Source: Deltaproteobacteria bacterium CG_4_9_14_3_um_filter_63_12 (GTDB lineage: Bacteria; Myxococcota_A; Bradymonadia; UBA4248; UM-FILTER-63-12). From it: a stretch of 64,000 nucleotides of DNA. The position numbers and the translations under genes were made by a program. Within the stretch, counting starts at the first letter, position 1; every line of letters begins with the position of its first letter. Location: NCBI GenBank assembly GCA_002789955.1, contig PFUG01000212.1:357-64356 (forward strand), written 5' to 3'. The notes under the pieces were generated by a model that saw only the letters and a program-made list of their open reading frames with translations, had not been told where the DNA came from and did no database searches. Of this stretch, positions 4,452 to 62,845 are shown piece by piece.

Positions 4452-6911
4452 ATGTTCAGACCTGTAGGGCAGCCGAAATGGACCTTGTTTCTCGTCGCTC
4501 TCTCGCTGACCCTTGCGCTGGGCTGTGATGACGGCCCGTCGACGCAGACACCAACAGATGACGCCACAGAGCTGGGACCCGATGGGACCTCGAACCAAGG
4601 GCGAGTGAGTGACGGCTTGCTGGCCTTCTACACCTTCTCCGAGAGCCAGAGTCGCATCGCCTACGACCGGGCGAATACGGGCGACCCCATCGACCTCTAC
4701 CAGCGCGAGACCGAGTATCTCGAGCGTCTGCAGCACCGAAACGGTTTCGCCATACGGGAGTCGGAGTGGCGGGACAACGGGTTTGAGTCCCTCGAGCTGC
4801 CGCACCGCATCAACGACGCCATCAAGGAGAGCCATGAGTTCACCTTGGAGCTCTGGTGCAAGCCCGACGACGTCTTGGTCGAGGGCCCGGCGCGAATGCT
4901 CACCCTGTCCTTCGACGGCAACAACCGCAACGTCACGCTCGGGCAGTTCCAAGGCGACCTTGCCGTCGGCCTTCGAACCGACGACCCAGGCGTCACCGCC
5001 AACGGCATGCCGACGCTCTACGCGCCGAAGGCCGTCACGGCCAAACAGGAGACGCACTACGCGCTGACCTTCGCCGACGGGGTATTGAAGCTCTACCGCA
5101 ATGGCGTGGCCCAGTCGCTCTACGATCGCACCGAGGACGCCGACGGCAACACCGTGGAGACCCTCGTAGAAGGCCGCCTCGGGACGTTCTCGAACTGGGG
5201 CTCCGACTTCGCCTTGACGATCGGCGACGAGACCAGCGGTGACCGCTCGTGGGCTGGGGAGATCTACCTCGTCGCCATCTATGGTCGGGCGCTCAGCCTG
5301 GCCGAGCTGCAACGAAACATCGCCGCCGGCAGCCTCTTCGCCAAAGAGCCGCCGCCAGTGAAGGACGTGACGCCGCCGAGCTCGCCGCTGTTGACGGCCA
5401 AGGTGTTGCCCAACGGCGTACAGCTGGATTGGACGCGCGCCGCGGACATCGGCGGGGTCTCGGGTTATTGGGTCTACCGCAGCGGCAGCCGCATCGCGAC
5501 GACCGAGGATCTGTCCTACTTCGACACAGGCCTAGGAAACGGGGCGCAATACACCTACGCGATCGGGGCGTTCGATCGAGACATGAACCGCACTCTCAGC
5601 AACTCCGTGACGTTGCGTTCGGCCGTCGTGTCCGAGTGGAACCACCTCCATGTGCACTACAGCCAGCGGCAGCTCGAGAAAGACAACGGCGAACAGTTCT
5701 TCTACCTCTCCGACAACGCCACGGCCCTGCTCGAGAAGCTCAGCCTCACGGAGATGGACCAATACCTCAACGACCGAGCCCTCAAGGGGTTCACCGTCAT
5801 TCAGTTCGGGCTCTTGCCCACCTTGGACGGCTCGACGCCAGATGGCATCAAGCCCTTTGGCACGGACGGGCTCTCCCTCAACGAAGCGTACTTCGAGCGA
5901 GTCGACGCGGCGATGGCGAAGATGAAGGCCCGTGGGCTCTTCCCTGCCATCCAAGTGGTCCCTTACCAAGAGTATCTCGACGGCGCGACTCCAGTGATGA
6001 CGCGGGACCTGGCGACGACGTTGGGCGAGTTCGTCGGTGCTCGCTACTCAGACGACGCGGTCTTCATTCTCGGCGCGGGCACCTCACCTGAAGGCTTCAT
6101 CGACGTTTGGCACAACCTCGGGATGGGCCTGCGCACGGGGGGCACCGGCATCCGGACCTTCTTCCCTGGCCCTGGCGAGAGTTCCAGCACCTGGTTCCAC
6201 GCCGAGGAGTGGCTCGGGTTCAACAGTGTCAACTCGGGCCAGGTCGCCGACGCAGAGAGCTGGGCGCTGATCGAGCCCGACATGCTGCTCGAGACTCCAA
6301 GTCACCGGCCGTGCATGGAGCTGGGCGGGGGGCTCGAGGACATTCCCGCCGCAGGGTCCATGGACAACCCACGACTCGGCGACTGGGAAGTCCGCAAGGC
6401 GGCCTACCGCTCGGTCTTCTCCGGCGGACATGGCTACGCCTATGGCTCGAACGAGGTCAGTCAGTTCTGGACCAGTGCGGACTCGAGCGCGACGGGCGCT
6501 CGAACGCCCTGGCAGGTCGCACTCGACGCTCCAGGCGCGCGCCAGATGGGCTATCTCCGCGCGCTCTTCGAAGGACGCCCGTTCCGCGGTCGCACGGCGC
6601 AGCCGGAGCTCGTGGTCGGCCAGCCCAGCGCTCCTGCGCAGCACGTCAGCGTCACGATGGAAGACGATCACTGGCTCTTCGCCTACTTCCCCGAGGGCGG
6701 CGAGGCGACGCTGGACGTCTCCCTGCTCTCATCGCCCGAGGTCGATGGCTACTGGTACAGCCCCCGCACCGGTGCCTATTGGGAGCTCCAGCGGCACAGC
6801 GGCGAGAACACGAGGACATACACGCCCCCGACCTCAGGTCCAGGCAACGATTGGGTGTTGGTGCTCGACGCTCCGGAATATCGATACCCACCGCCCGGCC
6901 AGAGCTGGTGA
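4452..6911 (+). CDS. Secreted lipoprotein with LamG-like (concanavalin-A-like lectin/glucanase) domain, FN3 domain and large C-terminal glycoside-hydrolase-like domain
   Basis: Signal peptide with lipobox LTLALGC. WAGEIYLVAIYGRALSLAELQRN is typical of Laminin_G_3 domains. An FN3-like segment (VQLDWTRA..YTYAIGAFD) follows. The C-terminal domain is DUF4038/GH-like; this is a tentative call from memory. Confidence 0.75.
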   Translation: MFRPVGQPKWTLFLVALSLTLALGCDDGPSTQTPTDDATELGPDGTSNQGRVSDGLLAFYTFSESQSRIAYDRANTGDPIDLYQRETEYLERLQHRNGFAIRESEWRDNGFESLELPHRINDAIKESHEFTLELWCKPDDVLVEGPARMLTLSFDGNNRNVTLGQFQGDLAVGLRTDDPGVTANGMPTLYAPKAVTAKQETHYALTFADGVLKLYRNGVAQSLYDRTEDADGNTVETLVEGRLGTFSNWGSDFALTIGDETSGDRSWAGEIYLVAIYGRALSLAELQRNIAAGSLFAKEPPPVKDVTPPSSPLLTAKVLPNGVQLDWTRAADIGGVSGYWVYRSGSRIATTEDLSYFDTGLGNGAQYTYAIGAFDRDMNRTLSNSVTLRSAVVSEWNHLHVHYSQRQLEKDNGEQFFYLSDNATALLEKLSLTEMDQYLNDRALKGFTVIQFGLLPTLDGSTPDGIKPFGTDGLSLNEAYFERVDAAMAKMKARGLFPAIQVVPYQEYLDGATPVMTRDLATTLGEFVGARYSDDAVFILGAGTSPEGFIDVWHNLGMGLRTGGTGIRTFFPGPGESSSTWFHAEEWLGFNSVNSGQVADAESWALIEPDMLLETPSHRPCMELGGGLEDIPAAGSMDNPRLGDWEVRKAAYRSVFSGGHGYAYGSNEVSQFWTSADSSATGARTPWQVALDAPGARQMGYLRALFEGRPFRGRTAQPELVVGQPSAPAQHVSVTMEDDHWLFAYFPEGGEATLDVSLLSSPEVDGYWYSPRTGAYWELQRHSGENTRTYTPPTSGPGNDWVLVLDAPEYRYPPPGQSW

Positions 6912-6914
6912 GAA

Positions 6915-6986
6915 AATTGCCGAGCGGACGGCCGATTTTCGCACCGCAAGCCTTCGAAACGACACGAAAATCGGTCGGGGGCAAGC
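6915..6986 (-). repeat. Copy A of an about 72-bp AT-cored palindromic intergenic repeat (family 1), reverse orientation
   Basis: Reverse complement reads GCTTGCCCCCGACCGATTTTCGTGTCGTTTCGAAGGCTTGCGGTGCGAAAATCGGCCGTCCGCTCGGCAATTTT, about 90% identical to copy D at 61849-61920. It lies between convergent genes. Confidence 0.8.
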
Positions 6987-7040
6987 AAGGCTATAACCCC
7001 AGATCGGCGGGGCGGCGCGGGGGCGCCCCGTTCTCCTCGC

Positions 7041-7895
7041 TCAGCGCAGCAGGATCAGGCGGAAGCGGACCTCGGACTTGAAGCCCACGCTCTGGGCCGC
7101 CTCGGTCCAAACCTCCTTGTCGCTGTCGATGAACATGATGACCTCTTTGCCCTTCTCCAACAGCAGGTTTCCGGCTTGACCGAGGATGCCAGAGACCAGG
7201 CGAGGACGCTGCAGCGGCCGGGGAATGTAGACGCGGTCGAGCATCATCACGCCAGGCTCGGGACTCTTGGCTTCGCCGAAGAAGATGGGCTTGCCCTTCT
7301 GCTTCCCGATCAGGAACTCGCCGCGCTCGATGGACTGCAAACAGCGCTTCTCGTGCGCCTCACGTGAGGCTCGGCGAGGATCTGCGTCCCACTGCTCCAA
7401 CGACTGCTCGGCGGCGAACTCCGACACGAGCTTGAGGTCCTTGGCGGTGGCGATCTCTACGCTGTAGGCGCTGTTGGTCTCGGGCGCGGCCTTGAGCGAG
7501 GTCAGCGTGCGCTCTTTGTCGCCGACGACCTTGCGGTTGATCTTCTGGAAACCAGCCCAGAAGACGCCCATCAAGCCCACCTCACCGAAGAGCATGTGGG
7601 TCCCGCCGGTGCTCGCTCGGCTGCCAGCAGCGCGCGCCATGGCCTGCGCCAAGGTGCGGGTCGCGGAATCGTCTTCGCCATAGATGTTGGCCGTCGTCCC
7701 CTCGACTCCCGCCAGCGCCTTGATCTCTCCGCCTTTGCCGAAGGCCGCATGCCACCACCCGTCGAAATTTTCGAGGTCGAGGGCCGCGAGCTTCATGAGC
7801 AAGGTCGGGTATCGTGGCGCACGGGCCAAGAACGACGTGACTTTGTCGTAATCCTTGGGAGGCACTTGGTTGCACTGGTAAGTCGTCTCGTCCAC
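7041..7895 (-). CDS. Hypothetical protein (284 aa)
   Basis: Clean ORF with coding-like codon bias and no motif I can name. It sits inside a segment bracketed by inverted family-1 repeat copies. Confidence 0.6.
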   Translation of the reverse strand: MDETTYQCNQVPPKDYDKVTSFLARAPRYPTLLMKLAALDLENFDGWWHAAFGKGGEIKALAGVEGTTANIYGEDDSATRTLAQAMARAAGSRASTGGTHMLFGEVGLMGVFWAGFQKINRKVVGDKERTLTSLKAAPETNSAYSVEIATAKDLKLVSEFAAEQSLEQWDADPRRASREAHEKRCLQSIERGEFLIGKQKGKPIFFGEAKSPEPGVMMLDRVYIPRPLQRPRLVSGILGQAGNLLLEKGKEVIMFIDSDKEVWTEAAQSVGFKSEVRFRLILLR

Positions 7896-7997
7896 GGTTC
7901 TTACTCCATTTCACTCGCTGATTCACTGAGAGAAACACTTGCCGGCGTAGCCTATGGCCATTCTTGATGGTTTGCTCGAAGCGCCACGCGCTCGAGT

Positions 7998-8366
7998 TCA
8001 GTCGTCATCCGCTTCCATGGCCGCAAGGGTCGCCTCGTCGAATACTGGCTCTCCCGCGTCGAACTCCATCTCCACGAGGACATCCCCCTCTTCGCTGTAC
8101 TGGACATAGTCGCCGTGCAGCTTCCCGTCTTGGTAGGCGCTCTCTTCGAAGAGCTCTCCGCTGGGGTACCAGCGGCGATAGGGACCTTGCAGGACTCCGT
8201 CGACGTGGGTCGCCTCATAGAGGAGCTGTCCGTCCTCGTCCCAGCGCCGCAAGACCCCGTGCAGCATACCCCGCTCGTAGGCGACCTCGAACTGCCGCTG
8301 CCCGTCCTCGAAGAACTGCTCGTAGATTCCTTTGCCTTCGTCTTCTTCGTTCGCCATGGTTCTCAT
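7998..8366 (-). CDS. MORN-repeat (MORN_2 / YwqK-like) protein
   Basis: Repeated G-x-L-x-G-x-Y-x-x-W-Y-x-x-G units (GVLRRWDEDGQLLYEATHVDGVLQGPYRRWYPSGELFEESAYQDGKLHGDYVQY) and an acidic C-terminus. Start is either M1 or M4. Confidence 0.65.
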   Translation of the reverse strand: MRTMANEEDEGKGIYEQFFEDGQRQFEVAYERGMLHGVLRRWDEDGQLLYEATHVDGVLQGPYRRWYPSGELFEESAYQDGKLHGDYVQYSEEGDVLVEMEFDAGEPVFDEATLAAMEADDD

Positions 8367-8377
8367 TTGAGGCTTCG

Positions 8378-8446
8378 CTGACCACGACCAATTTTCGCTC
8401 TATTTCGAACCGTTGTGGTGCGAAAATCGGTCGTCCGCTTGGCATT
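8378..8446 (+). repeat. Copy B of family-1 palindromic repeat
   Basis: CTGACCACGACCAATTTTCGCTCTATTTCGAACCGTTGTGGTGCGAAAATCGGTCGTCCGCTTGGCATT. Confidence 0.8.
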
Positions 8447-8637
8447 CGATGTCGGCGCGAACCGCATTCGTTGAAGGCCGACGAAGTGGGACGACGGCTC
8501 TCTCGAGCAAAACCTCATCGTCGACACGTTCATCGGGCTCACATCAGGCGAAACTACCGTCGTTTCTAGAGCGCGACAACACGCCAAGAACCAGAGGCAC
8601 GGCGACAACTCTCTGCACCCCGAGCTCTTCCAGGAAG

Positions 8638-8696
8638 GATTTTCGCTTTATTTCGCTGCGTTGCGGTGCGAAAATTGGTCATCCGCTCAGCATATT
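8638..8696 (+). repeat. Copy C of family-1 palindromic repeat (more diverged)
   Basis: GGATTTTCGCTTTATTTCGCTGCGTTGCGGTGCGAAAATTGGTCATCCGCTCAGCATATT. Confidence 0.75.
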
Positions 8697-8792
8697 GACT
8701 GCGGCGGACTCTGGACTGAGGTTCTCGCAATATGGTGGAGCATCGGGTAATAAGCGAAGACCCCCTGCAGCAATCCGGGAGAACTCCTGCAG

Positions 8793-9284
8793 ATGACCAT
8801 TATTCGCGATTTCGAAGACGCCCCGCAGCCCCCCACGCCGCTCGAACAGCCGACGCACCGCTGTCGCGTGATGCTGACTCCATTTCAGCGCGAAGACGTT
8901 CGCAAGCGGACTGGCCGCGAGATGGCTTGGGTGGACATCCACGATGACGACGGCCGTGCGTTCGAGAAAGGGATGCCTCAGCGCAACCCCGACGACGTCT
9001 TGTGGCATGCCCTGAGAGACGCCGAGGAGCGCAACAAGTACGACGCGGACTACCACGCCTACCTGATCGCCTTGGCCGCCTGGCAGGACGCGAACAAGGC
9101 GACCCCGGCGCAAATCGCCGATGAGCTCGCCGAGGAGGCCGAAGAAGACGCTGAAGCGAGGGCGGAAGCGTTCGCCGAGTTCTATGCAGCGGAGGGTGCT
9201 GCGCTCGAGGCCGCGAAAGCCGCTGCCGTCGAGGCCTGGGATCCCAAAGGCAAGAAACGAAAGAAGGCCGCTGCCGGCGAGTGA
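8793..9284 (+). CDS. Hypothetical protein (163 aa) with acidic/Ala-rich C-terminus and lysine tail
   Basis: ORF with GC3 bias. No recognisable domain. Confidence 0.5.
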   Translation: MTIIRDFEDAPQPPTPLEQPTHRCRVMLTPFQREDVRKRTGREMAWVDIHDDDGRAFEKGMPQRNPDDVLWHALRDAEERNKYDADYHAYLIALAAWQDANKATPAQIADELAEEAEEDAEARAEAFAEFYAAEGAALEAAKAAAVEAWDPKGKKRKKAAAGE

Positions 9285-10737: not shown

Positions 10738-10784
10738 GCAGCTATCGTTGCCTCCAGATCGCTCGAAATTTCGCGTGAGATTTG

Positions 10785-12740
10785 ATGAACGACAACAGTC
10801 CTCCTATCCCTGTTCCGGGCGAAATCGTAGCTGGGCGCTACGAAATTGCTGCCGTGATCGGCCGTGGGGGCGGGGGTGTCGTCTACCGGGCGCGCCAGCT
10901 CGGGATCAACCGAGACGTGGCGATGAAGGTCTTGCCGCCCGAGAGCCAGCTGCACGCTTCGGCGGTGCGCCGGTTCGAGCGGGAGGCCCGCCTGGTCGCT
11001 CGCCTGCGCCACCCCAACACGGTCACGCTCTACGAGTTCAACCGCACCCAGACCGGCCTGCTCTACATCGTGATGGAGTTCGTGGACGGCGTCCCGCTGA
11101 AGGCCGTCCTAGAACGTGAGGGGCAGATTCCGCCCAATCGAGCGGTACCGATCTTCCGGCAAGTGCTCAAGAGCTTGGCTGAGGCGCACTCGCACGGCAT
11201 CGTGCACCGCGACCTCAAACCCGCCAACATCATGCTGTGCAACCTGCACGGCGAACGGGACTTCGTAAAAGTGCTCGACTTCGGCGTCGCCACCGTGCTC
11301 GAGGCCGACGACCAGCTCTTCGACGACGACATGACCCGCACCGCCGACGTGGTCGGCACCCCCAAGTACATGGCCCCTGAGCAGTTCCGCTCGGGCACCC
11401 TCACCGCGGCGAGCGACCTCTACGCCACGGCCTGCATCGCCTTCGAGATGCTCGCCGGATACTGCCCCTTCGACGGCGAGACGCTGCACGTCACCATCGC
11501 CAAACACCTCTTCCAGCCTGCACCCAAGTTGCCCGATTTCCTCAGCCGCTACCCCAACCTCGTCGCGACCATCGAGCGCTTGCTGGAGAAGACCCCCGAG
11601 ACCCGCTTCCAGACCGCCGAAGCCGTCCTCGAGTCGCTGACAAACTGGGAGGCCGGGGTTCCAGACGCCAAACCGTACGTGGCGACGATGCCGACTGCCA
11701 ACGACTCCTACGTCGAGGCCTACAAGCAAGAGGCCGGACCTGGCGGGCTCCCACACCAGATGCCCTTCGACGCCACACCGCAGCCTGGCTCCGTCAACTC
11801 GGTGACCAACAACGGATTGCGCAACGACATCAGCTCGCGCTATGGCCAACATCCATTGCAGCAGGGCTACACCGCAACTCCGAGCCACCCCATCTACCCA
11901 CAGGACGCCGTCAACGCGGGAGACACCAACCCGAACATGATGGTCCTGTCCCAGCCGCGCAGCAGCGGCGACGCCCGCACCTGGCTGCTCCTGGGCATGG
12001 TCTTCACCGTCATCGTGCTGGCCGCGGTCGCCTTCCTCATCCTCACGCGCCACATGCGCGGAAAAGACACGCAGTCCGAGGACGCCTCGGGCGCAGCGGA
12101 GGCCACGGAACACTCCGACCCAAGCACCGCAAGCAACGGTCATGGACTAGAGATGTCGTCGGACTCCCTCGATCGCATCAGCACCATCTACTTCGCCACC
12201 GACCAGGGCTCCATCTCCTGCGCCAACGGCTTTGTCGAAGGCAGCTCGCGAGCGAAGCCAGCGGCGAAGACCCCCATCCCGAAGGAGCTCCCTAAGGACC
12301 CGGTAAAGACAGATCCTGTCGTCAAGAACGACCCGGTAAAGACAGATCCTGTCGTCAAGAACGACCCGGTCAAGACAGATCCTGTCGTCAAGAACGACCC
12401 GGTCAAGACAGACCCTGTCGTCAAGAACGACCCGGTAACGACAGACCCTGTCGTCAAGAACGACCCGGTCAAGACAGGTCCGGACAAGGACGATCCAGCT
12501 AAGACCGCCCGCGAATACACCCGCTTCTCGTTCAAATATCAGCCTCCCACCTGCAAGGTGAAGGTCAGCGGCGCCAAGGAGTCGAGCTGCAAGGCGGGGG
12601 TCTGCAAGGTCCGGGCGGCCATCGGCACGACCCTCTCGATCGAGGTCTCCGCGGAGGGACGGCCCACTCTCAAAAAGAGCATCAAGGTCACCAAGGAAGT
12701 GACCGTGGACACCATCACGCTCTACCGGCGTTCGAACTAG
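10785..12740 (+). CDS. Hanks-type Ser/Thr protein kinase with TM segment and extracytoplasmic repeat/PEGA-like domain
   Basis: GRGGGGVVY glycine loop, AMK lysine, HRDLKPANIML, DFGVA and GTPKYMAPE. TM helix WLLLGMVFTVIVLAAVAFLIL. Tandem DPVKTDPVVKN repeats. Confidence 0.9.
   Translation: MNDNSPPIPVPGEIVAGRYEIAAVIGRGGGGVVYRARQLGINRDVAMKVLPPESQLHASAVRRFEREARLVARLRHPNTVTLYEFNRTQTGLLYIVMEFVDGVPLKAVLEREGQIPPNRAVPIFRQVLKSLAEAHSHGIVHRDLKPANIMLCNLHGERDFVKVLDFGVATVLEADDQLFDDDMTRTADVVGTPKYMAPEQFRSGTLTAASDLYATACIAFEMLAGYCPFDGETLHVTIAKHLFQPAPKLPDFLSRYPNLVATIERLLEKTPETRFQTAEAVLESLTNWEAGVPDAKPYVATMPTANDSYVEAYKQEAGPGGLPHQMPFDATPQPGSVNSVTNNGLRNDISSRYGQHPLQQGYTATPSHPIYPQDAVNAGDTNPNMMVLSQPRSSGDARTWLLLGMVFTVIVLAAVAFLILTRHMRGKDTQSEDASGAAEATEHSDPSTASNGHGLEMSSDSLDRISTIYFATDQGSISCANGFVEGSSRAKPAAKTPIPKELPKDPVKTDPVVKNDPVKTDPVVKNDPVKTDPVVKNDPVKTDPVVKNDPVTTDPVVKNDPVKTGPDKDDPAKTAREYTRFSFKYQPPTCKVKVSGAKESSCKAGVCKVRAAIGTTLSIEVSAEGRPTLKKSIKVTKEVTVDTITLYRRSN
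12297..12480 (+). repeat. In-frame 33-bp tandem repeat (about 5.5 copies) encoding (DPVKTDPVVKN)n inside the kinase gene
   Basis: GACCCGGT(A/C)AAGACAGA(T/C)CCTGTCGTCAAGAAC repeated head-to-tail with a few synonymous or conservative changes. Confidence 0.9.
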
Positions 12741-13344: not shown

Positions 13345-13650
13345 CTGCGATCGCGAGCGCGGGCACTCCAGCTCGCTCGTCTCGAGCGAGCGCCGTGTTG
13401 CGAAGCGAGCGAAATCCGGTCGGATTTCGCGCGCGACTCGGAACCGTGCTGGCTCGAAGCGAGCCACTTTGGTCCCCATGCGCGATCTAAACCCGCGCCT
13501 CTCATCCTTCTTTTTCTACGGCGGCGTCCTCGGTAGAGTGGCAACGTTGTCAAAATCGTCTAGGTGACTCTCGCCGCTTGGCGTGAGTCTTCGCAATCGG
13601 ATTTTCGCGCATGACCCGGAACAGAGGGGGCTCGAAGCGAGCCCCCTCGC
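13345..13650. repeat. Cluster of GC-rich hairpin repeats (family 2; REP-like): GCTCGCTCG-tct-CGAGCGAGC, two GGCTCGaagCGAGCC units, and a half-copy of family 1 (CGGATTTTCGCGC at 13592)
   Basis: 13352-13412 is about 85% identical to the reverse complement of 31201-31260. Palindromes GGCTCGAAGCGAGCC at 13451 and 13629. Confidence 0.7.
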
Positions 13651-50318: not shown

Positions 50319-53300
50319 ATGAGCGACCACCACGAGACGGATTCGACCCCCACCCCTGACGCCGAGAACCCCGAGGAGAGCGCCCTCGTTGGGGCCGTCT
50401 TGGACGCAGAGGACGCGGCCGAGGCGCTCGATGAGCACGCCGGAGATGAGTTGGAGGGATCTGGCGAGGCTGCGGCGTCCGAAGAGGCCTCACCGGCTGA
50501 TGGTGAGGCCCCGGATGCTGATGGCGACATCGACGTCGACGAGCAAGAGCCGAGCGAAGACGCGGCCGATGAAGCTGAGCCTTCTGACGAGGTTGTGGAG
50601 GTCTCGTGGGAAGACAAGGCGGAGGCCCTGATTGCAGGCGCTGCCGCTGCTTCCTCTCCCGAAGAGAGTTTGTCGAAGTACGTTGCGGCGATCTTGCTCG
50701 CCGATCAGAACGCTCCTGGGGACGGACGAATCGCAGAGACTTGGGGCGATGCGCTGCAAAGAATCCCTGGGTTGGCGCGCGAGTTGTGGGCGCGGCTCAG
50801 CGGCAGAGTGACGTCCGAAGTGGATGTTTGGGAGCAGATTTCCATCGCCCACCAGGTCAACTCGACGGACGCCGATGGAGACGAGGCGCTCGCCATTTCA
50901 GAGGCTTGGGGTTGGGTTCAGGTGCTTCGCTCTGGAGAGGTCGAGGCAGGGAAGGCTCGTTTGCAGGCTTTCGCCGAAGGCGACGCCAACGGCTATTCCG
51001 CAGCGATTCTCGAGGCCGTGATTTCGGCTGAGAGTGGCAACTGGAGGAAGGTCGAAAGTGAGATCAAGGATCGGCTGGCCGCGACCGGTCTCGACGGAGA
51101 GCCGCTGGCCGCCGAGGTTGCGTTACGACTTGCTGATGTGAGCATGGGGCAAGCGGCTAGGGACCGTGCGGTCGAGGTCCTTCGACGCGCACAGCGCAGC
51201 GATCCCGAGCACAGCAGCCTTCGCAACCGGCTGACGGTGCTCTATCGAGACACCGCAAAGTGGAACGCCTACGTCGATCTCCTGAAAGAGGCAGTGGCGC
51301 GCACCCCTGATCCCGAAGAGCAGGTCAGCATCTACTTCGAGATGATCCGCATCTACACGGATCAGATGCACCTCGAAGCGATGGCGGTGAAAGCCTATGA
51401 GTCACTGTTGCTGATCGAGCCGACGAACGAGAGGGCGATCGGTGCGCTCGCCGCGGCTTATGAGTCCTCGCGTCGTTGGCCGGACTTGGTCTCATTGCTG
51501 CGTGGGCAAGCGGACGCGGCCAAATCTGCTGCGCGCCGTGTGGCGCTGAACTACCGCATCGCCGTGGTGTACTTGGACAACCTCTCCCGTCAAGTCGACG
51601 CCATCAAAGCGTTCGAAATGGTCTTGGAGGACTCGCCCTACCACGAAGAGACGATCGCACACCTCAAAGACCTCTACGGTCGGCGAAGGGAGTGGGAGAA
51701 GCTCATTGATGTTCACAAGGCGGAGATCAGCCGCCTCGCCGATCCATTTGAGCAAGCCGAGCGGCTGAAGGAGGTCGCGGAGATTGCAGACAAGCTGCGG
51801 CAGCCATCTATCACCGCGTTGATTTGGAGCGAAGTGCTCGAGCGTTCTCCGAAGGACGAGGCAGCTCTTTCGGCCCTCGAAGGGCTTTACGAGAGAGAGA
51901 AAGATTGGCCGAAGCTGGCGGACATCTGCGAGCGAAAGGCCACCCTCGAGGAGGATCCGGCGGAACAGCTCAAACTCTGGACGAAGCTCGGCGGGCTGTA
52001 TGGAAGCAGCATCCGTGACTCGGAGGGAGCGATCCGGGCTTGGCGCGCTGTTTTGATGTTGGAGCCTGGTCACACCAAGGCCTCCGATTCTTTGCGCAAG
52101 CTCCTCATCGACACGAAGAAGTGGGACGATCTCGAGACGTTCTACGCTGAGCAGGATGCCGGGGCCGAGCTGGTCCGCGTCCTGGAAACCCTCGCCAACA
52201 CCTCGAAAGAGGACGCCGATGTCGTCGAGCTGCGCTTCAGAGCCGCTCGCGTCTGGCGGGATGATCTGGGGAACCCCGATCGCGCCGTGGCTTCGCTCGA
52301 GAAGGTCTTCGAGACCGACGCTGCGAATGCACGAGCCGCAGCCGAGTTGGCCCCCCATTACGAGTCGATCGCCGATCACGCCAAGTTGGTCGCGATGTTG
52401 GAGATCCAGCACGCGGCGGAAGATGGCCTGGAACGCCGCGTCGAGCTGGCTCTCAAGATCGCGACGCTGAACGAGAAGTCCCTCAACGATTTGGCGGCAA
52501 GCTACCGTTGGCTCGCGTCCGTCATCGAGCAGAAGCCTGACCACGACGCCGCCTACGACGCCTTCGAGCGCGTCGGCATCCAGCTCGACAAGGCCGCTGA
52601 CGTCGTCAAACGCTACCGCGATGCGAGCAGCAAGGTCGAGACCGAAGTCGAGCGGCAGGAGTTGACGTTCAGGATGGGCATCATTTTGGCCAACCAGCTC
52701 GGCAAAGTCGACGCAGCCCTCGCTATGTTCGAGTCCATTCTCGAGCAGGAACCCGACAACCTCAAAGCTCTCGGCGCGCTGGAGCGGATCCTCGAACAGA
52801 CAGGGCGCTTCGACGAGCTGATCCAGGTCAACGAGCGTCGGCTAGGATTGGCGACCACGCCTGCGGAAGAGGCCGAGATCCTGCTCTCAGGGGCGCGGAT
52901 TCACGAGCAGCAGAGAGGGGACAAGGTCACCGCGATCGAATCGTACGAACGCGTGCGGGAGTTGGCCCCGAAGAATCAAGCGGCCTTGATCGAGTTGCAT
53001 CGCCTGTACAAGGAGCGAGGCGACTGGGAGGCGATGGCCAACGCCATCCGTGCGCGCCTCGCGTTGATGGCCGAGGCGGCCCCTCGGCCAACAAAGAGGG
53101 TGGAGCACCGCAGCCCCGTCCAGTTGGACGAGGACGGTCATCTCGACGCACCAGCTGGAGCCGACCTCGACGAAGACGCCGACGGGAACGTCTTTGTTGT
53201 TCGCGTCGAGGAGGTCATCGACGAGACGGCAGAGCCACAGCTCGAGGCGAGCGTGGCCATTCCGCTGTGGATGGAGTTGGGCAGCGTGGTCCAACACGAG

Positions 53301-56300
53301 CTCGCCGAGTACGACGAGGCCATCGGCTGCTATCGCCGGATCATGGAAACGGACATTGAGAACGAGGCAGCGCAAGAAGCCTTGGAGACCCTTCTCGGCG
53401 AAGGGATCGAGGCTGGGCGAGTCGCTACGATTCTCGAGCCCGTCTACGCGTTCCAAGCGGACTTCGACGCGCTGGTCAAGGTGCTCTCGATCCAGTTGGA
53501 GCATAACACCGTCAAGGACCAGCAGATCGTCTTGTGGACCCGAGTCGCGGGCTTGCAGCGCGATGAACTCGGCGATCAAGAATCGGCCTTCGAAGCGTAT
53601 GGGAAGGCTCTCGAGCTCTTACCCGCCGACGACGAGGTCTTCGGCCAGCTTTCGAGCGTCGCTGCGGGCTTGGACGACATTCCGCGACTGGCAGCGAAGT
53701 TGGAGAGCATCACAGAGTCTATCGAGGACGAGCGGCTCCGCACGTCGTATGAGTTGCGGCTCGCTGGGATCTACGAGACCAGCCTCGACGACATCGAACG
53801 CTCGAGGGACTTTGCCCGCTCCGCTCTGCAGCGTGGTGGGAAGGACCCGGCGGTTCTGGAGTCCCTCGAAGCTCTACACACACGCACCGAGTCTTGGGAC
53901 GATTTGCTCGCGGTTTTGTCGAAGCAGAAGGGCCGAGTGGCAGAGGAGCCTGAACGGGTGCTCGCCCTCAACCTTCGGATTGCCTCGGTCAAAGAGGAGC
54001 TGCTTCAGGATCCGGAAGGCGCCATCGAGGTGTACCTCGAGGTCCTGAACGCCGATGGCGCCAACGAGCAGGCGCTGGCAGCCCTCGACCGGCTCTACGC
54101 CGACCTCGAGCGCTGGGACGAGGCCGCTTCGAACTTGGGCCGAAGACTCGAGCTCCAAGAAACCGAAGCGGGGCGCGACGCGGTGCATTGCCAACTCGCG
54201 AAGGTCCTGGATCGCCACCTCGGTGAGTCGGAGCGAGCGATTGAGATCTACACCGAGGTCTTGGGACGCGACTCACAGAACGCGACGGCGATCTTGGATC
54301 TCGAGGCGATGCTCGAGACGGCAGATCCCATCCCCGCCGAGTCGATCATGGAGCTGCTGCTGCCGCTCTACGACGCGGCTGGAGACTGGAGGAAGCGCGC
54401 CTGGGTCAATGAGAAGATGCTGCGGGTCGTCGACGATACACAGCGCCGGGTCGCGCTGTTGGCGGAGATCGCCAACCTGCACGAGAGCCAAGGGCAGGAG
54501 TACGAAGAGGCCTTTATCGCCTACTCTCGTGCGCACACGGAAGACCCGACCGACGAGAACACTCTCGAGCAGCTCCGCCGTTATGCGGAGGCGTTGGACG
54601 TCTGGCGCGAGTTGGTGGAGGTGATGCAGACCGCAGCAGAAACCATCGCCGATGGCACTCAGGCTAAAGAAGCGCAGATTCGCATCGCTTCGATCTACCG
54701 CGACAATCTCGCCGATCTTGAAGGCGCGACGACAGCTTACGAGCGTGCCAGCGAGTACGACCCAGAGGACACCAGCATTCTCGATTCGCTCGAGACGATC
54801 TACCGAGAGCGTTCCGCCTGGGAACCCCTCACCGCGGTTCTCGCCAAGAAGGCAGTGCGCTGCGAAGATCTCACGGAGAAGAAGGAGTACCTCTTCCAGG
54901 CTGCCATTCTCTGTGAAGAGATGCTCGAGCGGATGGACCGTGCCACCGAGATGTACCAAGAGGTCTTGAGCCTCGATTCCGAGGATCGGACCGCCATCGA
55001 CAGCCTCGAGCGACTCTATCTGAGCACCGAGCGCTGGAACGACTTGATGTCGATCTACAACATCAAGATCGAAGCGGCGCAGACGCCCGAGCAACAGCTC
55101 GAGCTCTACTACATCGTTGGGGCCTTGCAGGAGCGCGAGCTCGACGACAACTACGGTGCCATCGAGACCTACCGCAAGGTTTTGGACATCAACTCTGACG
55201 ACCCCCACGGTCTCGAGGCGCTTGACCGGCTGTATACGCTGGTCGAGGACTGGATGAATCTCCTCGAGATCCTGGAGCGAGAAGAGGCGACGGCCAGCGA
55301 TCCAGATGCCAAGCTCGAGCTGCGCTTCCGCCAAGGCGACGTGTGGAGACTCAATCTCAACGAGTCGCTGCGCGCGATCGAGGTGTACCGCAGTGTTCTC
55401 GAGGTGCACTCGGCGCATGAGGCGAGCATCGCCGCTCTCGAAGCGGTCATCGCCAGCGGAGAGAACGGGGTCGATGCCGCGAAGGTGCTCGAGCCAGTCT
55501 ACAAATCGGCGGCTGAGTGGGAGAAGTTGGTCGCGGTCTATGAGGTGATGTTCGAGCAGTCCGAGGACGAGCAAGGCCGAATCGAGCTGTTGAGCACGAT
55601 CGCCATGATTCGTGAGGACATGCAGGGCGATGCTGCGGCTGCATTCGACGTCTGGATTCGGGCGCTCCACCAAGATCCTCGAGACGCGACGGCTTGGGAG
55701 ACCTTGCAGCGCATCGCCGCTGTGATGGACCTCTGGGACACTCTCGTTTCGAAGGGAGGAGAGATCCTCGCCAAGACCGAGGAGAGCGATGCGGCAAGCA
55801 TCGTCGCCAGTCACTTGGCCCGTATCTACGAGGAGAATATTGGCTCGCCGACCGACGCCATCTCGATGTGGGGCCGTGTACTCGAGGTCGAGCCCGCGGA
55901 GCCCACGGCGATCGCCGCTCTCGATGGTCTCTACGAAAGGCAAGCCATGTGGCCCCAGCTGGCCGAGACACTGTCCCGAGAGATCGAGCTGGCCACCCGC
56001 GAGGAGGACATTCTCAGATTCCGTCTGCGCCTGGGGACCCTTTACGAGAACTTCTTGGAGGACCTGAGCGAAGCGATCAGTTGCTACAACGAGATGCTGA
56101 TGCTGCAGGCCGGAAACGCGGATGCCGTCGCCTCTTTGGAGCGCATGTTCGCAGCCGGTCAAGAACAGCTCGCCGTTGGTGGGATCTTGGAGCCGTTCTA
56201 CCGAGACACCGAGCAATGGGACAACTTGGTCGGGATCGCGTTGGCCCTATTGGAGCATTTTGAGACCGCCACGGAGCGCTATCAGAAGCTCCTGGACATC

Positions 56301-59300
56301 GCTGAGATCTACCTCGGACCGCTATCGAACGCAGCCAATGCCCTCTTCGTCTATGGTCGTGCTCTCGTCGAACGCCCAGGGGACGAATTCGCTCTCACTC
56401 GCTTGAGCGAATTGGCGGAAATCACACAGTCTTGGGAGGAGGCAGTGGACTTCCTCGCCGCCGCTTTGGACGCGTCCGAAGAGCCGACGGTCCAAAGGGA
56501 ACTGTTGTGGCGCATGGCGACAGCCTACAACGACGAGATCGGCAACTTCGAGCAAGCAGAGCACGCCTATTTGCGAGTCTTCGAGGTCGACCCCGAAGCG
56601 CTCGACGCCATGCAGGCCCTCGATAAGCTCTACCTCGAGCAGTCCCGGTGGGACGATCTGGTCAACGTCTTGCGTCACGAGATCGCCCTTTCTCAAGGCG
56701 ATCACGAGAAGATCGAGCTCTACCTGCGGTTGGGTCAGATCTATGAGGACATGATCCAGAACTCAGCCGCTGCGGTGCAATCTTTCCGCCTGGCCCTCGA
56801 GCTCGAGCCCTCACAATCGGAGGCGCTCGCTGCCCTCGAACGAATCCACATGCAAAGTGAGGAGTGGGAGCTCCTCTACGCCGTCTACAGTCAGCAATCG
56901 ACCATCGCCGACAGCGAAGAGGTGCGTTCGGAGATCTGGGCCAAGATGGCCAACCTCGCCGCCGAGGTCCTCGACCGCCGCAACGACGCCATCGAGCTCT
57001 GGTTCCAAGTGCTCGACGCCCGAGGGGCAGATCTCAACGCCCTCCAGAACCTCGAGCGGCTCTTCGAGTACGATAAGCGCTGGCCTGACATGACCGACGT
57101 CATCGAGCGCCAGGTGCCATTGGTTCAGACTGCCGAAGCGCAGCTGGAGCTCTTCCGCAAGCTCGGCAGAATTTGGAGCGGGCCTCTCGAGAACGAGGAG
57201 AGAGCCCTCGAGTATTGGCGTCGCGCCATGGACGTCCACCAAGAGGACCTCGAGACCCTCTGCGCCATCAAGCAGATCGATGAGAACCTCGGCGACTATG
57301 AAGACCTGGTGGACATCATTCGCCGCATCGTCGCGCTCGGCGTTTTGGAGCACGAGGTTCAGCTCGCCCATTACGTGCAGCTCGGCGAGATCTTGAGCCA
57401 GGTCCTCATTCGCTCGCAGGAGGCGATCGACACTTGGATTCAGGTCCTCCAGCTCAATCCCGCCCACCTCCAGGCGCTGGTCGCGTTGGAGCAACTCTAT
57501 GTCGACGAAGCTCGATGGGAGGAGGCTGTCGACGTCCTCGACCGCAAGGCGGACGTCGTCGAAGACTCGAACGAGGCGCTCAACATTCGCATGCAGATCG
57601 CCGAAATCTGGGAGAACCAGGTTGGCAATGCCGAGCTCGCAGCGGCGGCCTACGACAACGTCCTGGATATGGATCCAGCCAACAACGACGCGTTCCTCCG
57701 CCTCGAGACTTTGCACACCAACGGTGAGAACTGGCAACAGCTGCTTGGCCTCTACGTCACACGCGCCGAGGTGATCGAGGAGCCGAAGACCCGCCTCGAG
57801 GTGCTGCGGCGGGCCGCCAGCATCGCCGAAGAGCGCCTCGACCAACCCGAGATGGCCTTTGTCGTGCTGCAGACGGCGCTGGCCGATCACTGGCGCGATT
57901 CGACCATCGCCAATGAGCTCGAGCGGCTCGCTGACGTGACGCGAAACTGGCGAGAGCTGGTCGGGATCTACGAGCAGATCATCGAGACGGTGAAGGACCC
58001 TTCCGAAGCCCTCGAGCTCCACAACAACGTCGCCCGTTGGTACTTCCACAAGCTCAACGACAACGAGAAGTCCTGGCAACACTTCCAGTTCGTGCTCTCG
58101 CTCGACCCCAACAACCTCAACGCGCTTGCGGCTCTCTCGAAGATCTACGAGCGGCTGGGCAGCTGGCAAGAGCTGGTCAACGTCCTGGTTCGTCGCGCCG
58201 AGTTGACCCAAGAGGTCGAAGACAAGATCGAGCTCTACACGCAGATCGCCGTCGTCTGGGAGGACAACCTCTCAAACGAAGCGCAAGCCATCGAGGCGTT
58301 CCGACAGGTTCTCGCGCTCGATGAAGGCAACCTCAACGCCTTGCGTCAGCTCGAGCGCATCTTCCAAGGAACTCAACAGTGGGAGGAGCTCGTCGACGTG
58401 CTGGAGACACTCTGCCAGGTCGTCTACGAACCTGCGGACGTCGTCAAGATGCGCTATCGCGTCGGCGAGATCTGGGAGACCTGCCTCGAGGTCGACCAGA
58501 AGGCGATCGATTCTTACCGGCAAGTCCTCACCATCGAGGAGACCCATGCGCCCGCTCTCGATGCGCTGGAGCGACTCTTCACGCGACTCCAGCAGTGGGC
58601 GGACCTCATCGGTGTCTACGAGGCGCAGCTGACCTCTGCGGAGTCTGGCGACGAGCAGATCGCGCTCTACCTCAAGATGGCAACCGTCTATGAGGAAGAG
58701 TTCGGTGACGTCGAGAACTCGATCGCCTGCATGCAGCGCATCACGATGGTCGATCCGGCGAACTTAATGGCCATCCAGACCCTCGAGCGTCTCTATCGCG
58801 ACAACGGACGCTGGCCGGACCTGATCGACGCACTCACGACCCACATTAGCATCGTCTACGACCGAAAGGAGCAGATCGAGCTGTACCGACAGCTGGGTGA
58901 GGTCTTCCGAGACCATCTCCAAGATGTCTACCGGGCCATCGAGAGCTTCCGGAATATCCTCGAAATCGACCCCAATCATTCGCTCGCCTTGGGGGCGTTG
59001 GCCGACCTCTACTACAACAGCGCCGACTGGCAGACCTGCATCGAGACCCTCAACCGCCTCGTCGCGGTCACCTTCGAAGTCGCTGACGGCGTCGAGCTCC
59101 AATATCGGATCGGTAAGATCTTCGAGGAGCATCTGGCGGAGTACGACCAGGCAGAAGAGCGCTTCCAGATCGCCCTCGATCTCGACGGCTCGTTCATGCC
59201 CGCCATCGATGCCCTGCAGCAACTCTACGAACGCCGCGAGGACTTCATCGGCGTGATCCGGATCCTGAAGCAGAAGGTCGAGCACACGGTCGACCTCGAG

Positions 59301-61658: not shown

Positions 61659-61687
61659 AAGCGAGAGGGACTCCCCCTCTCGCTTCC
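61659..61687 (+). terminator. Perfect 12-bp-stem hairpin GAAGCGAGAGGG-actc-CCCTCTCGCTTC after the giant gene (no U-tract)
   Basis: Read directly from the sequence. A second 7-bp-stem hairpin lies at 61707-61727. Confidence 0.4.
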
Positions 61688-61848
61688 GCTTGGCGAGTGT
61701 TCAGTCGGTGCTCAGGCGAGCACCGCAGTAAAAGAAATCACCGAAGAACGCGTTCCCACAAAGCGGCCCTTCACACCTGGGTCTGCGGGCGAGTTGTCGG
61801 TGCTGCACGAGCCGCAAACGTCACGGCTCATTTGGAATCTAGACCCCC

Positions 61849-61920
61849 GCTTGCCCACGACCGATTTTCGCTTCATTTCGATATGTTACGGTGCGAAATT
61901 CGGTCGTCCGCTCGGCAATT
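61849..61920 (+). repeat. Copy D of family-1 palindromic repeat
   Basis: GCTTGCCCACGACCGATTTTCGCTTCATTTCGATATGTTACGGTGCGAAATTCGGTCGTCCGCTCGGCAATT. Confidence 0.8.
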
Positions 61921-61942: not shown

Positions 61943-62845
61943 ATGGCAGGAACCCTCTTCGTCGTCGCGACACCCCTCGGAAACCTTGAGGACATCACCC
62001 TGCGCGCACGCAGGATCCTCCAGGACGTGCTTTGGATCGCCTGCGAAGACACCCGACATTCTGGGCGCTTCCTGCGAGGACTCGGCGCCAACGCCAGCCT
62101 CCTCAGCTACCACGCCCACAACGAAGCCAGCCGCGAGGCGAAGATCCTCGGGATCCTGCAAAACGGCGAAGACGTCGCGCTGATCGCGGACGCTGGCACT
62201 CCCTGCATCTCAGATCCCGGCGAGCGCCTCGTGCGCGCCTGCCGCGCCGCCGGTCTCACCGTCGTCCCAATCCCTGGGCCGAGCGCCGTCATCACCGCCC
62301 TCTCAGGCAGCGGGTTGCCCTCTGGCCGCTTTCATTTCGAAGGCTTTTTGCCTCGAGAAGACAAGCATCGGCGCGCGCGGCTCGAAGCACTCAACTCGAG
62401 CGAGACGACTTTTGTCCTTTATGAGTCGCCCAAGAGAATCCACAAGCTGCTCGAAGAGCTCGTCGAAATCTGCGGCGAATCGCGCCAGGTTTGCGTCGCT
62501 CGTGAGCTGACCAAGATGCACGAAGAGTTCTTGAACGCCACCGCTCGCGAGCTGCTAGACCAAATCAGCGAGCGCAACGCGCTCAAGGGCGAGTTCACCG
62601 TGATCGTCGAGGCCTCCGAACCGAAGCAGGAAGACGCCGACGACGTGCGCGTCGCCGCCCTCGTGCAGACCTTGCGCAACGAGGGGCTGAGCGATCGCAG
62701 CATTCGCGGGGTCATCATGGAGACCTTCGAATTGAGCCGAAACGCCGCCTACGCCTACGTGCTCGACCTCGCGGACGGCCCCGCGGACGGCCCCGCGGAC
62801 GGCCCCACGGACGGGCTCGCGGACGGCCCCGCGGACGAAAGCTGA
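61943..62845 (+). CDS. rsmI: 16S rRNA (cytidine1402-2'-O)-methyltransferase with C-terminal (ADGP)n repeat tail
   Basis: LFVVATPLGNLEDIT, EDTRHSG, DAGTPCISDPG, VPIPGPSA and YESPKR match RsmI. GAGGTGAGG RBS. Confidence 0.9.
   Translation: MAGTLFVVATPLGNLEDITLRARRILQDVLWIACEDTRHSGRFLRGLGANASLLSYHAHNEASREAKILGILQNGEDVALIADAGTPCISDPGERLVRACRAAGLTVVPIPGPSAVITALSGSGLPSGRFHFEGFLPREDKHRRARLEALNSSETTFVLYESPKRIHKLLEELVEICGESRQVCVARELTKMHEEFLNATARELLDQISERNALKGEFTVIVEASEPKQEDADDVRVAALVQTLRNEGLSDRSIRGVIMETFELSRNAAYAYVLDLADGPADGPADGPTDGLADGPADES
62771..62836 (+). repeat. 12-bp tandem repeat (GCGGACGGCCCC)x5 encoding ADGP repeats at the rsmI 3' end
   Basis: Read directly from the sequence. Encodes LADGPADGPADGPTDGLADGPADES. 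Confidence 0.85.

Follow-up and report, generated by a model that had tools for sequence, protein, structure and literature searches.

Palindromic repeat families and the repeat described here

REPINs are doublets of repetitive extragenic palindromic (REP) sequences that form hairpins and are moved around by RAYT tyrosine transposases (Bertels & Rainey, PMC3337134, PMC3116915). The GI REPIN of Pseudomonas fluorescens is 89 bp long and is composed of two inverted REPs and a variable spacer, which together form a hairpin (PMC3337134). MITEs (miniature transposable elements with inverted repeats) are reported to prefer AT-rich intergenic DNA, and those of the Correia type are found just upstream of genes (PMC10969869). 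The repeat described here was identified in a stretch of 64,000 nucleotides of Deltaproteobacteria bacterium CG_4_9_14_3_um_filter_63_12 (contig PFUG01000212.1, positions 357 to 64,356; hereafter the window). It constitutes a real, lineage-specific family of palindromic repeats with ~90 bp per copy. At least 15 distinct copies are known, of which four are inside the window and the remaining 11 on further contigs of this organism; 14 of the 15 are extragenic. The best reading, to which a probability of about 0.75 is assigned, is a non-autonomous MITE/REPIN-like palindromic repeat family of 'Deltaproteobacteria bacterium CG2_30_63_29'. Genomic features of this kind are ordinary, although neither Rfam nor the other collections searched gave a match to this family.

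The resemblance to REPINs lies in the length (~90 bp versus 89 bp for the GI REPIN), in the two inverted conserved arms that enclose a variable spacer, in the capacity of the whole element to fold into one long hairpin, and in its almost always extragenic location. The best-conserved arm may also be an imperfect palindrome in its own right (GCGG-A-CGA...TCG-CA-CCGC). The repeat differs from REPINs in that no RAYT gene was found in the ~260 kb of this genome examined, that at least 15 copies are known instead of hundreds, that one copy is intragenic, that its sequence has no similarity to described REPs and that it carries an asymmetric tail of ~12 nt. Its host is also different, being an uncultured deltaproteobacterial/myxobacteria-like lineage and not a pseudomonad or an enterobacterium. 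A second set of likenesses is found with the Correia/NEMIS elements of Neisseria and the ERIC elements of enterobacteria (PMC10969869): the repeat is short, non-coding and bounded by imperfect terminal inverted repeats, it is less GC-rich than the genome, it is intergenic and often positioned immediately upstream of genes, and it would be co-transcribed as a stable hairpin. Unlike MITEs derived from insertion sequences (ISs), it features no demonstrable target-site duplication, and no parent IS with matching ends was found in the metagenome, species-representative and viral scans; unlike Correia, it has no sigma-70-like promoter inside the element.

Anatomy of the element

The element is described in the orientation AATTGCC...GGCAA followed by the tail, which is called sense. 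Its consensus is AATTGCCGAGCGG-ACGACCGATTTTCGC-ACCGCAAG-(~14 variable nt)-GAAATGA-GCGAAAATCGGTCGT-GGGCAAGCGAGGCAAG-AAATCCAAT, ~90 bp in total. This orientation is the reverse of the consensus given in an earlier analysis of the window that used its letters alone (the sequence-only reading). The length of 72 bp proposed there was too short: ~18 bp more belong to the element on one side (TTGCCTCGCTTGCC... in the earlier orientation), and this extension pairs with GGCAA at the opposite end. The inner inverted repeat measures 15 bp and the outer one is TTGCC(GAGC)/(GCGA)GGCAA. Together, the outer TTGCC/GGCAA and the inner 15 bp make up terminal inverted repeats that are imperfect and asymmetric. 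The arm sequence is GCGGTGCGAAAATCGGTCGTCCGC. The tail, present on one side, is short and weakly conserved.

Two conserved arms of ~30 nt each flank a variable centre. The mean pairwise identity amounts to 86.5% in the 5' block, 85.7% in the 3' arm, 70% in the outer 3' part, 47.7% in the centre and 36% in the tail. Hypervariability, which had been attributed to the whole loop, holds for the central ~14 nt (48% identity) and is confined to them, the loop edges (CACCGCAAG and GAAATGA) being conserved; the central part of the copies also varies by indels of 1–3 nt. The identity between copies A and D (Table 1), put above 90% for the parts flanking the loop in the sequence-only reading, is 89% in the best-conserved arm and 76% overall. 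The 5' block GCCGAGCGGACGACCGATTTTCGCACCGC (30 nt) is almost invariant across the 15 copies and more conserved than its partner arm. It can fold on itself through GCGG/CCGC and CGA/TCG (7 bp; 96 Watson-Crick and 8 G-U pairs among 105 cells), and the partner arm retains just the CGA/TCG part of this small palindrome. The 15-bp arms are 92% paired over the 15 copies. Folding of the copies as single-stranded DNA yields the expected long hairpin (-10.7 to -21.3 kcal/mol, z = -1.0 to -4.7). The outer stem UUGCCGAGC/GCGAGGCAA, which includes tandem G-A pairs, is part of the predicted fold in copy D and in the copies at L017 and L009 (loci outside the window bear L numbers, see Table 1). Judged by eye from the consensus, the element is less GC-rich than the genome. 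Note that the window is 62.1% GC, and not 67% as first reported.

The four copies in the window had been recognised from the sequence and are confirmed at or around the positions given for them. The best-conserved 23-mer of the earlier consensus, GGTGCGAAAATCGGTCGTCCGCT, matches each of them with 0–2 mismatches, for a chance expectation of 0.00 (100 dinucleotide-preserving shuffles). A profile hidden Markov model (HMM) built from all copies and used for an nhmmer search of the 64-kb window recovers the four with E = 3e-18 to 3e-24, and gives no match in the window beyond them. A half-copy had also been proposed at position 13592. It is a chance similarity: matches to its 10-mer (up to one mismatch) outside the four copies number 4 for 6.6 expected, and the profile is silent. 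The small open reading frames (ORFs) that run across the copies had been taken for artefacts of the repeat, which is right for the window.

Distribution of the family

A degenerate 23-mer scan of JGI metagenome contigs retrieved 13 stretches that correspond to 10 further distinct copies; all metagenome pattern matches are short elements. The eleventh copy outside the window, at L041, is more diverged and was found in flanking sequence. The contigs that carry the other copies share only the element with the window. Proteins of these contigs are listed in NCBI under 'Deltaproteobacteria bacterium CG2_30_63_29', as is the window protein OIP36245.1, and the rsmI gene of the window is present in GCA_001873925.1. 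It follows that the 15 copies are all from a single species population, known from groundwater metagenomes. The copy number of the family is a lower bound (at least 15). One extra copy was present in ~100 kb of flanking sequence taken irrespective of the element, and a rough extrapolation from this flank puts the total number of copies probably in the tens.

The notion of a local duplication, or of a chance similarity limited to the window, is already refuted by these data: zero matches are expected by chance, window copies lie 55 kb apart and 11 more are located on contigs with unrelated flanks. Duplication on a local scale does take place, as copies B and C share one spacer and L010 has a tandem duplication of 138 bp. 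The latter duplication, which gave rise to the two copies at that locus, includes the element and 47 bp of non-element flank.

No copy was found outside this population in the collections searched. Of the two scans made of 185,579 species-representative genomes, the first was empty and the second held no true member of the family; two scans of viral contigs were empty as well. Three matches obtained in the second species-representative scan (Acetobacteraceae, Pleurocapsa and Sulfuricurvum) were rejected as chance matches, there being no conservation outside the specified bases; two of the three apparently lie within coding sequence, as read by eye. The lineage itself is isolated, the next RsmI homologue after a 99% strain variant being 58% identical. 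The relative that encodes this homologue has the same order of the tetratricopeptide repeat (TPR) gene and rsmI, with a spacer of only 72 nt and no element. This is consistent with gain of the element in the present lineage, although the comparison is weak at that distance. The available strains are ~99.8–100% identical and retain every copy in the contigs compared, which cover the four window copies A to D and the one at the acyl-CoA dehydrogenase gene.

Window positions 8000 and 62000 are found on separate contigs of GCA_001873925.1 (MNYG01000278.1 and MNYG01000341.1, respectively). Since the window ends fall on two contigs of that assembly, the window must derive from another assembly of this population that is less fragmented. 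The 284-aa protein encoded next to copy A is also on record from a contig of 73 kb.

Genomic position and orientation of the copies

The neighbours of the copies are unrelated housekeeping genes that have no common function (Table 1). The four copies of the window are strictly intergenic, as had been stated, but this does not extend to the family because the L009 copy is inside a gene. At eight loci the element has the AATTGCC... orientation and a start codon 0–100 nt downstream; at copy D and L015 it is the other end of the element that lies 22–26 nt upstream of the start codon. The ppdK and acyl-CoA dehydrogenase genes carry their own Shine-Dalgarno sequence downstream of the element. The diverged copy at L041 lacks the usual tail and its GAGG is found 6 nt before the ATG of csp, a cold-shock-protein gene; from the sequence, this GAGG is likely the only plausible ribosome-binding site of csp.

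Table 1. Position and gene context of the copies of the palindromic repeat in the window (A to D) and on other contigs (L numbers)
Copy or locus	Position	Strand	nhmmer E	23-mer match	Gene context	Details
A	6915-7004	+	5e-24	6923-6945(-)	apiosidase-like gene / convergent 284-aa gene	inner arms 6928-6942 and 6964-6978; flanked by two stop codons, at 6911 (apiosidase-like gene) and at 7041 (284-aa gene)
B	8362-8446	-	2e-21	8417-8439(+)	MORN-repeat gene / divergent 163-aa gene	3' end directly at the start codon (8366) of the MORN-repeat gene, which spans 7998-8366(-) and matches Pfam MORN_2
C	8620-8695	-	3e-18	8665-8687(+)	MORN-repeat gene / divergent 163-aa gene	oriented like B and ~170 bp upstream of it in the same spacer; 97 nt from the start (8793) of the 163-aa gene; most decayed copy, 3' arm and outer stem degraded, weakest fold (z = -1.0)
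D	61831-61920	-	3e-24	61890-61912(+)	3767-aa TPR gene / rsmI	in the spacer from the TPR gene end (61622) to the rsmI start (61943), antisense to the two genes; 5' end upstream of the rsmI ATG by 22 nt; no difference among 11 strain contigs
L012					ftsA / ftsZ	antisense in the spacer
L017					glyS / ppdK	
L016					GNAT gene / xth	
L013/L036					TonB-dependent receptor / acyl-CoA dehydrogenase	
L007/L043					HlyD-type subunit of RND efflux operon	
L011					purple-acid-phosphatase gene / secreted protein	
L041	5997-6082				smpB / csp	
L015					PCC-domain gene	
L010	1142-1370				SprT-like/DUF2786/DUF7168 gene	gene downstream of two copies
L009	301-391				yfhO-family gene	inside the gene

The location of most copies in promoter-proximal DNA would suit an operator or an architectural DNA site, where a dimeric regulator or a nucleoid-associated protein would bind the arms (ACGACCGATTTTCGC and its complement) and control the neighbouring promoters. 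The near invariance of the 30-nt block, above that of its partner arm, suggests sequence-specific recognition and points the same way, but a transposase would be just as good a candidate for the protein that recognises it. Such a site is improbable given that copies are also found where two genes converge and within a coding sequence, that no regulator gene is adjacent and that the high identity over 90 bp, non-palindromic parts included, better fits recent common descent than convergent conservation of a site. Such arms, of 15 bp and with a spacing that varies from 20 to 24 bp, are unlike known operators. A MITE/REP-like family is preferred over an operator because copy A is at convergent gene ends, the L012 copy is antisense in the ftsA-ftsZ spacer and the L009 copy is in frame, because the neighbours share no function, and because two conserved arms around a variable centre are the anatomy of REPINs and MITEs (PMC3337134). 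A regulon was also considered and rejected, the neighbouring genes being functionally unrelated.

RNA structure, transcription signals and coding capacity

Rfam 15 gives no match at gathering scores in the whole window, and a search of positions 6800-8900 at E up to 10 returned only chance-level matches. No tRNA or tmRNA was detected by the corresponding scan. Scans for sigma-70 promoters and for intrinsic terminators around all four window copies found none, and motifs of the sigma-54, sigma-28 and extracytoplasmic function (ECF) types gave no fit when read by eye. In the 15-bp inner helix none of the 15 pairs is changed on both sides and seven pairs deviate by mismatches only. The inverted arms are real and the differences between copies are non-compensatory, in agreement with the sequence-only reading. 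The mismatches of the inner stem (9 G-U versus 8 A-C) are equally common on either strand, which implies that no strand behaves as a selected transcript. The covariation score of the whole structure is 0.079 versus 0.067 in shuffles, only marginally above them, and was attained by 25 of 500 shuffles. This score is not evidence of structure because the tool is, by its stated behaviour, prone to false positives on related sequences. Since there is no Rfam match, no compensation in the inner helix and no strand signal, the reading as a DNA-level repeat stands. It had been favoured from the outset, as a MITE/REP-like element or an operator, over a conserved RNA stem, and the dispersal of the copies supports it as well. 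Neither of the two outcomes named beforehand as contrary to it, copies restricted to this place and covariation in favour of an RNA, was observed.

Other candidate identities were discarded. A coding peptide is incompatible with the central indels of 1–3 nt and with the differing frames of the overlapping ORFs. Integron attC sites, CRISPR and terminators were rejected on the grounds that the copies are dispersed single units, without an array, without R'/R'' core sites and without a T-run.

The eight loci with the element in sense orientation upstream of a start codon bring in the possibility of a cis-regulatory 5' leader RNA. The AATTGCC... strand would be transcribed and form a long hairpin that hides the Shine-Dalgarno-like GAGG, held in the 3' strand GCGAGGCAA of the outer stem, providing a common translational control, for example by temperature. 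At L041 the stem would sequester the GAGG that precedes csp, and the three predicted folds that include the outer stem are in line with this arrangement. One pair of the outer helix changes from U-A to C-G in L010a, L010b and L041b, and to U-G in L016, which is weak support for selection for pairing. A leader RNA is nevertheless unlikely. Four or five copies are unable to be leaders (A is convergent, L012, D and L015 are antisense and L009 is intragenic), the inner helix shows no compensatory change while shuffled sequences attain the covariation score, and several of the downstream genes have their own ribosome-binding sites; on these grounds the reading fails for the family as a whole. In addition, G-U pairs do not exceed A-C mismatches on the strand proposed to be transcribed, the downstream genes are functionally unrelated and Rfam holds no match. 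It is also improbable that the element is a portable 5' leader module whose insertion just upstream of a start codon, in the AATTGCC... orientation, supplies the GAGG or masks it in a long hairpin. If this were true, the spread of the module would have brought csp, ppdK, xth, the acyl-CoA dehydrogenase gene and the efflux operon, unrelated as they are, under a single post-transcriptional response (to temperature, for instance), and a mobile element would be the distributor of a translational switch.

Proposed spread of the family

As members of a MITE/REPIN-like family, the copies would have spread to unrelated sites by the action of a transposase supplied in trans. Candidate enzymes are a single-strand, hairpin-recognising transposase of the RAYT or IS200-IS605 type and a conventional IS transposase. 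The copies would have landed mostly in less GC-rich DNA beside gene boundaries, with one in-frame landing within a gene, and would later have decayed by uncompensated point mutation, copy C being the oldest-looking. A copy positioned in a 5' leader would be transcribed as a long hairpin with GAGG on one strand, and individual copies may have been co-opted as leader hairpins. Such co-option is a side effect and not the reason for the existence of the family.

Palindrome-associated transposable elements (PATEs), which derive from IS200/IS605, resemble the repeat in having subterminal hairpins, no clear target duplication and short sequences that resemble each other immediately beyond one end and at the opposite end (AATT.../...AATT). 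By analogy, the orientation bias of the copies (see below) could reflect strand-specific single-strand transposition as in PATEs. No TnpA or TnpB gene with these ends was seen in the sequence examined. No full-length IS with the same ends was found either, the metagenome matches being all short and the scans of species-representative genomes and viral contigs giving none.

Several observations weigh against a MITE/REPIN-like family. The called genes of the ~260 kb examined include no transposase gene and no RAYT gene (Y1 transposase, PF01797). AATTG-like pentamers occur at both ends of the element; they are identical in L017, agree in 4/5 bases in L016, D, B, L015 and L010b, and are poor in L009 and A. 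They do not demonstrate a target-site duplication, being too uniform across copies for an interpretation; they might belong to the element or represent a preferred target. The available strains, at ~99.8% identity, offer no empty site at close evolutionary distance. The copies have one orientation relative to local transcription at 10 of 13 loci (binomial p ~0.09 by our own calculation, suggestive only) and crowd 0–60 nt from start codons, more than expected from uniform spacer placement (p ~0.01, a rough hand estimate over four loci). Orientation bias and start-codon crowding are not predicted by pure random insertion. The list is completed by the change of one outer-helix pair described above and by a family copy number that is known solely as at least 15.

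The in-frame copy in a yfhO-family gene

The L009 copy, on contig Ga0210044_10001940, lies in the unbroken frame of a 658-aa ORF coding for a yfhO-family membrane protein (P0121/P0140, PF09586). The gene callers of several assemblies give one single protein of this length. Third-position GC is 0.81–0.86 upstream of the element and 0.84 downstream of it in the same frame, and no start codon is found after the element. Alignment by BLASTP to the closest homologue (P0122, 36–39% identity) extends on both sides, with gaps over the element-encoded CRADGRFSHRKFSEIGENRSWASEATNPN. The simplest reading of these sequences is an in-frame insertion of ~30 codons, whose exact junctions are uncertain because of the variable loop region and of the distance of the homologue. 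Note that the immediate flanks of the element, ...GCGCCCGG and GGGCGCGC..., are mutually inverted complements, as if a 12-nt palindrome had been split by the insertion.

In-frame fusions are known for Rickettsia palindromic elements (RPE) and for ERIC elements (PMC10969869). Like an RPE, the yfhO copy is in frame within a protein-coding gene, adds a peptide and leaves the frame open. This is a shared behaviour, displayed by one copy only, and not membership: 1/15 copies is intragenic here whereas most RPEs are, the element has ~90 bp instead of ~100–150 bp, and the host lineage is unrelated.

Other features near the copies

A GC-rich inverted repeat, GGGGCG...CGCCCC, occupies window positions 7009-7029, past copy A and before the stop codon at which the 284-aa gene ends. 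It resembles a terminator stem for the two convergent genes, has no T-run and was not called by the terminator scan. An ORF of 39 codons, MSRDVCGSCSTDNSPADPGVKGRFVGTRSSVISFTAVLA (61662-61781(-)), begins at the ATG with which copy D finishes; this ORF is unlikely to be a gene, because its third-position GC of ~0.69 is below the ~0.8 that is usual for genes here.

The gene of the 3767-aa TPR-rich protein (50319-61622) is directly upstream of rsmI and its stop codon is followed by the hairpin GCGAGAGGG-ACTC-CCCTCTCGC. The TPR-rsmI arrangement is kept, with a 3776-aa protein, in the relative of 58% RsmI identity (L023:1-9928). The RsmI carboxyl terminus (62780-62845) features tetrapeptide repeats of the ADGP/TDGL type, and strain variants of the protein differ by one repeat unit (300 versus 296 aa; P0001). 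A strain-variable island is located downstream of the penicillin-binding-protein gene next to rsmI (L024:13400-15979 versus L001:13400-16300). In the CG17 strain (GCA_002781545.1) the island codes for ORFs of 154 aa and 110 aa and for an nSTAND/AAA_16 kinase that replaces the PEGA-domain kinase of the other strains. Elsewhere in the window there are at least four Pkinase-type genes (10782, 16911, 18876 and 25692). The Ser/Thr kinase ORF 10782-12740 carries ~6 near-perfect PVKTDPVVKND repeats (12300-12600) before its carboxyl terminal domain.

Significance for the lineage

The family is of modest interest and leaves the understanding of such elements unchanged. For this genome, it accounts for spurious small ORFs and for variable start-codon calls at the sites of the copies, as for the acyl-CoA dehydrogenase gene, called at 386, 389, 392 and 401 aa, and for xth, called at 258 or 265 aa. 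It provides a marker sequence for this uncultured lineage and contributes one more family of palindromic repeats, from a branch of the former Deltaproteobacteria for which sampling is poor. How such repeats become part of genes is illustrated on a small scale by the in-frame copy at L009 and the csp copy at L041. Discovery of the mobilising enzyme would widen the range of hosts known for REPIN/RAYT-like or MITE systems.

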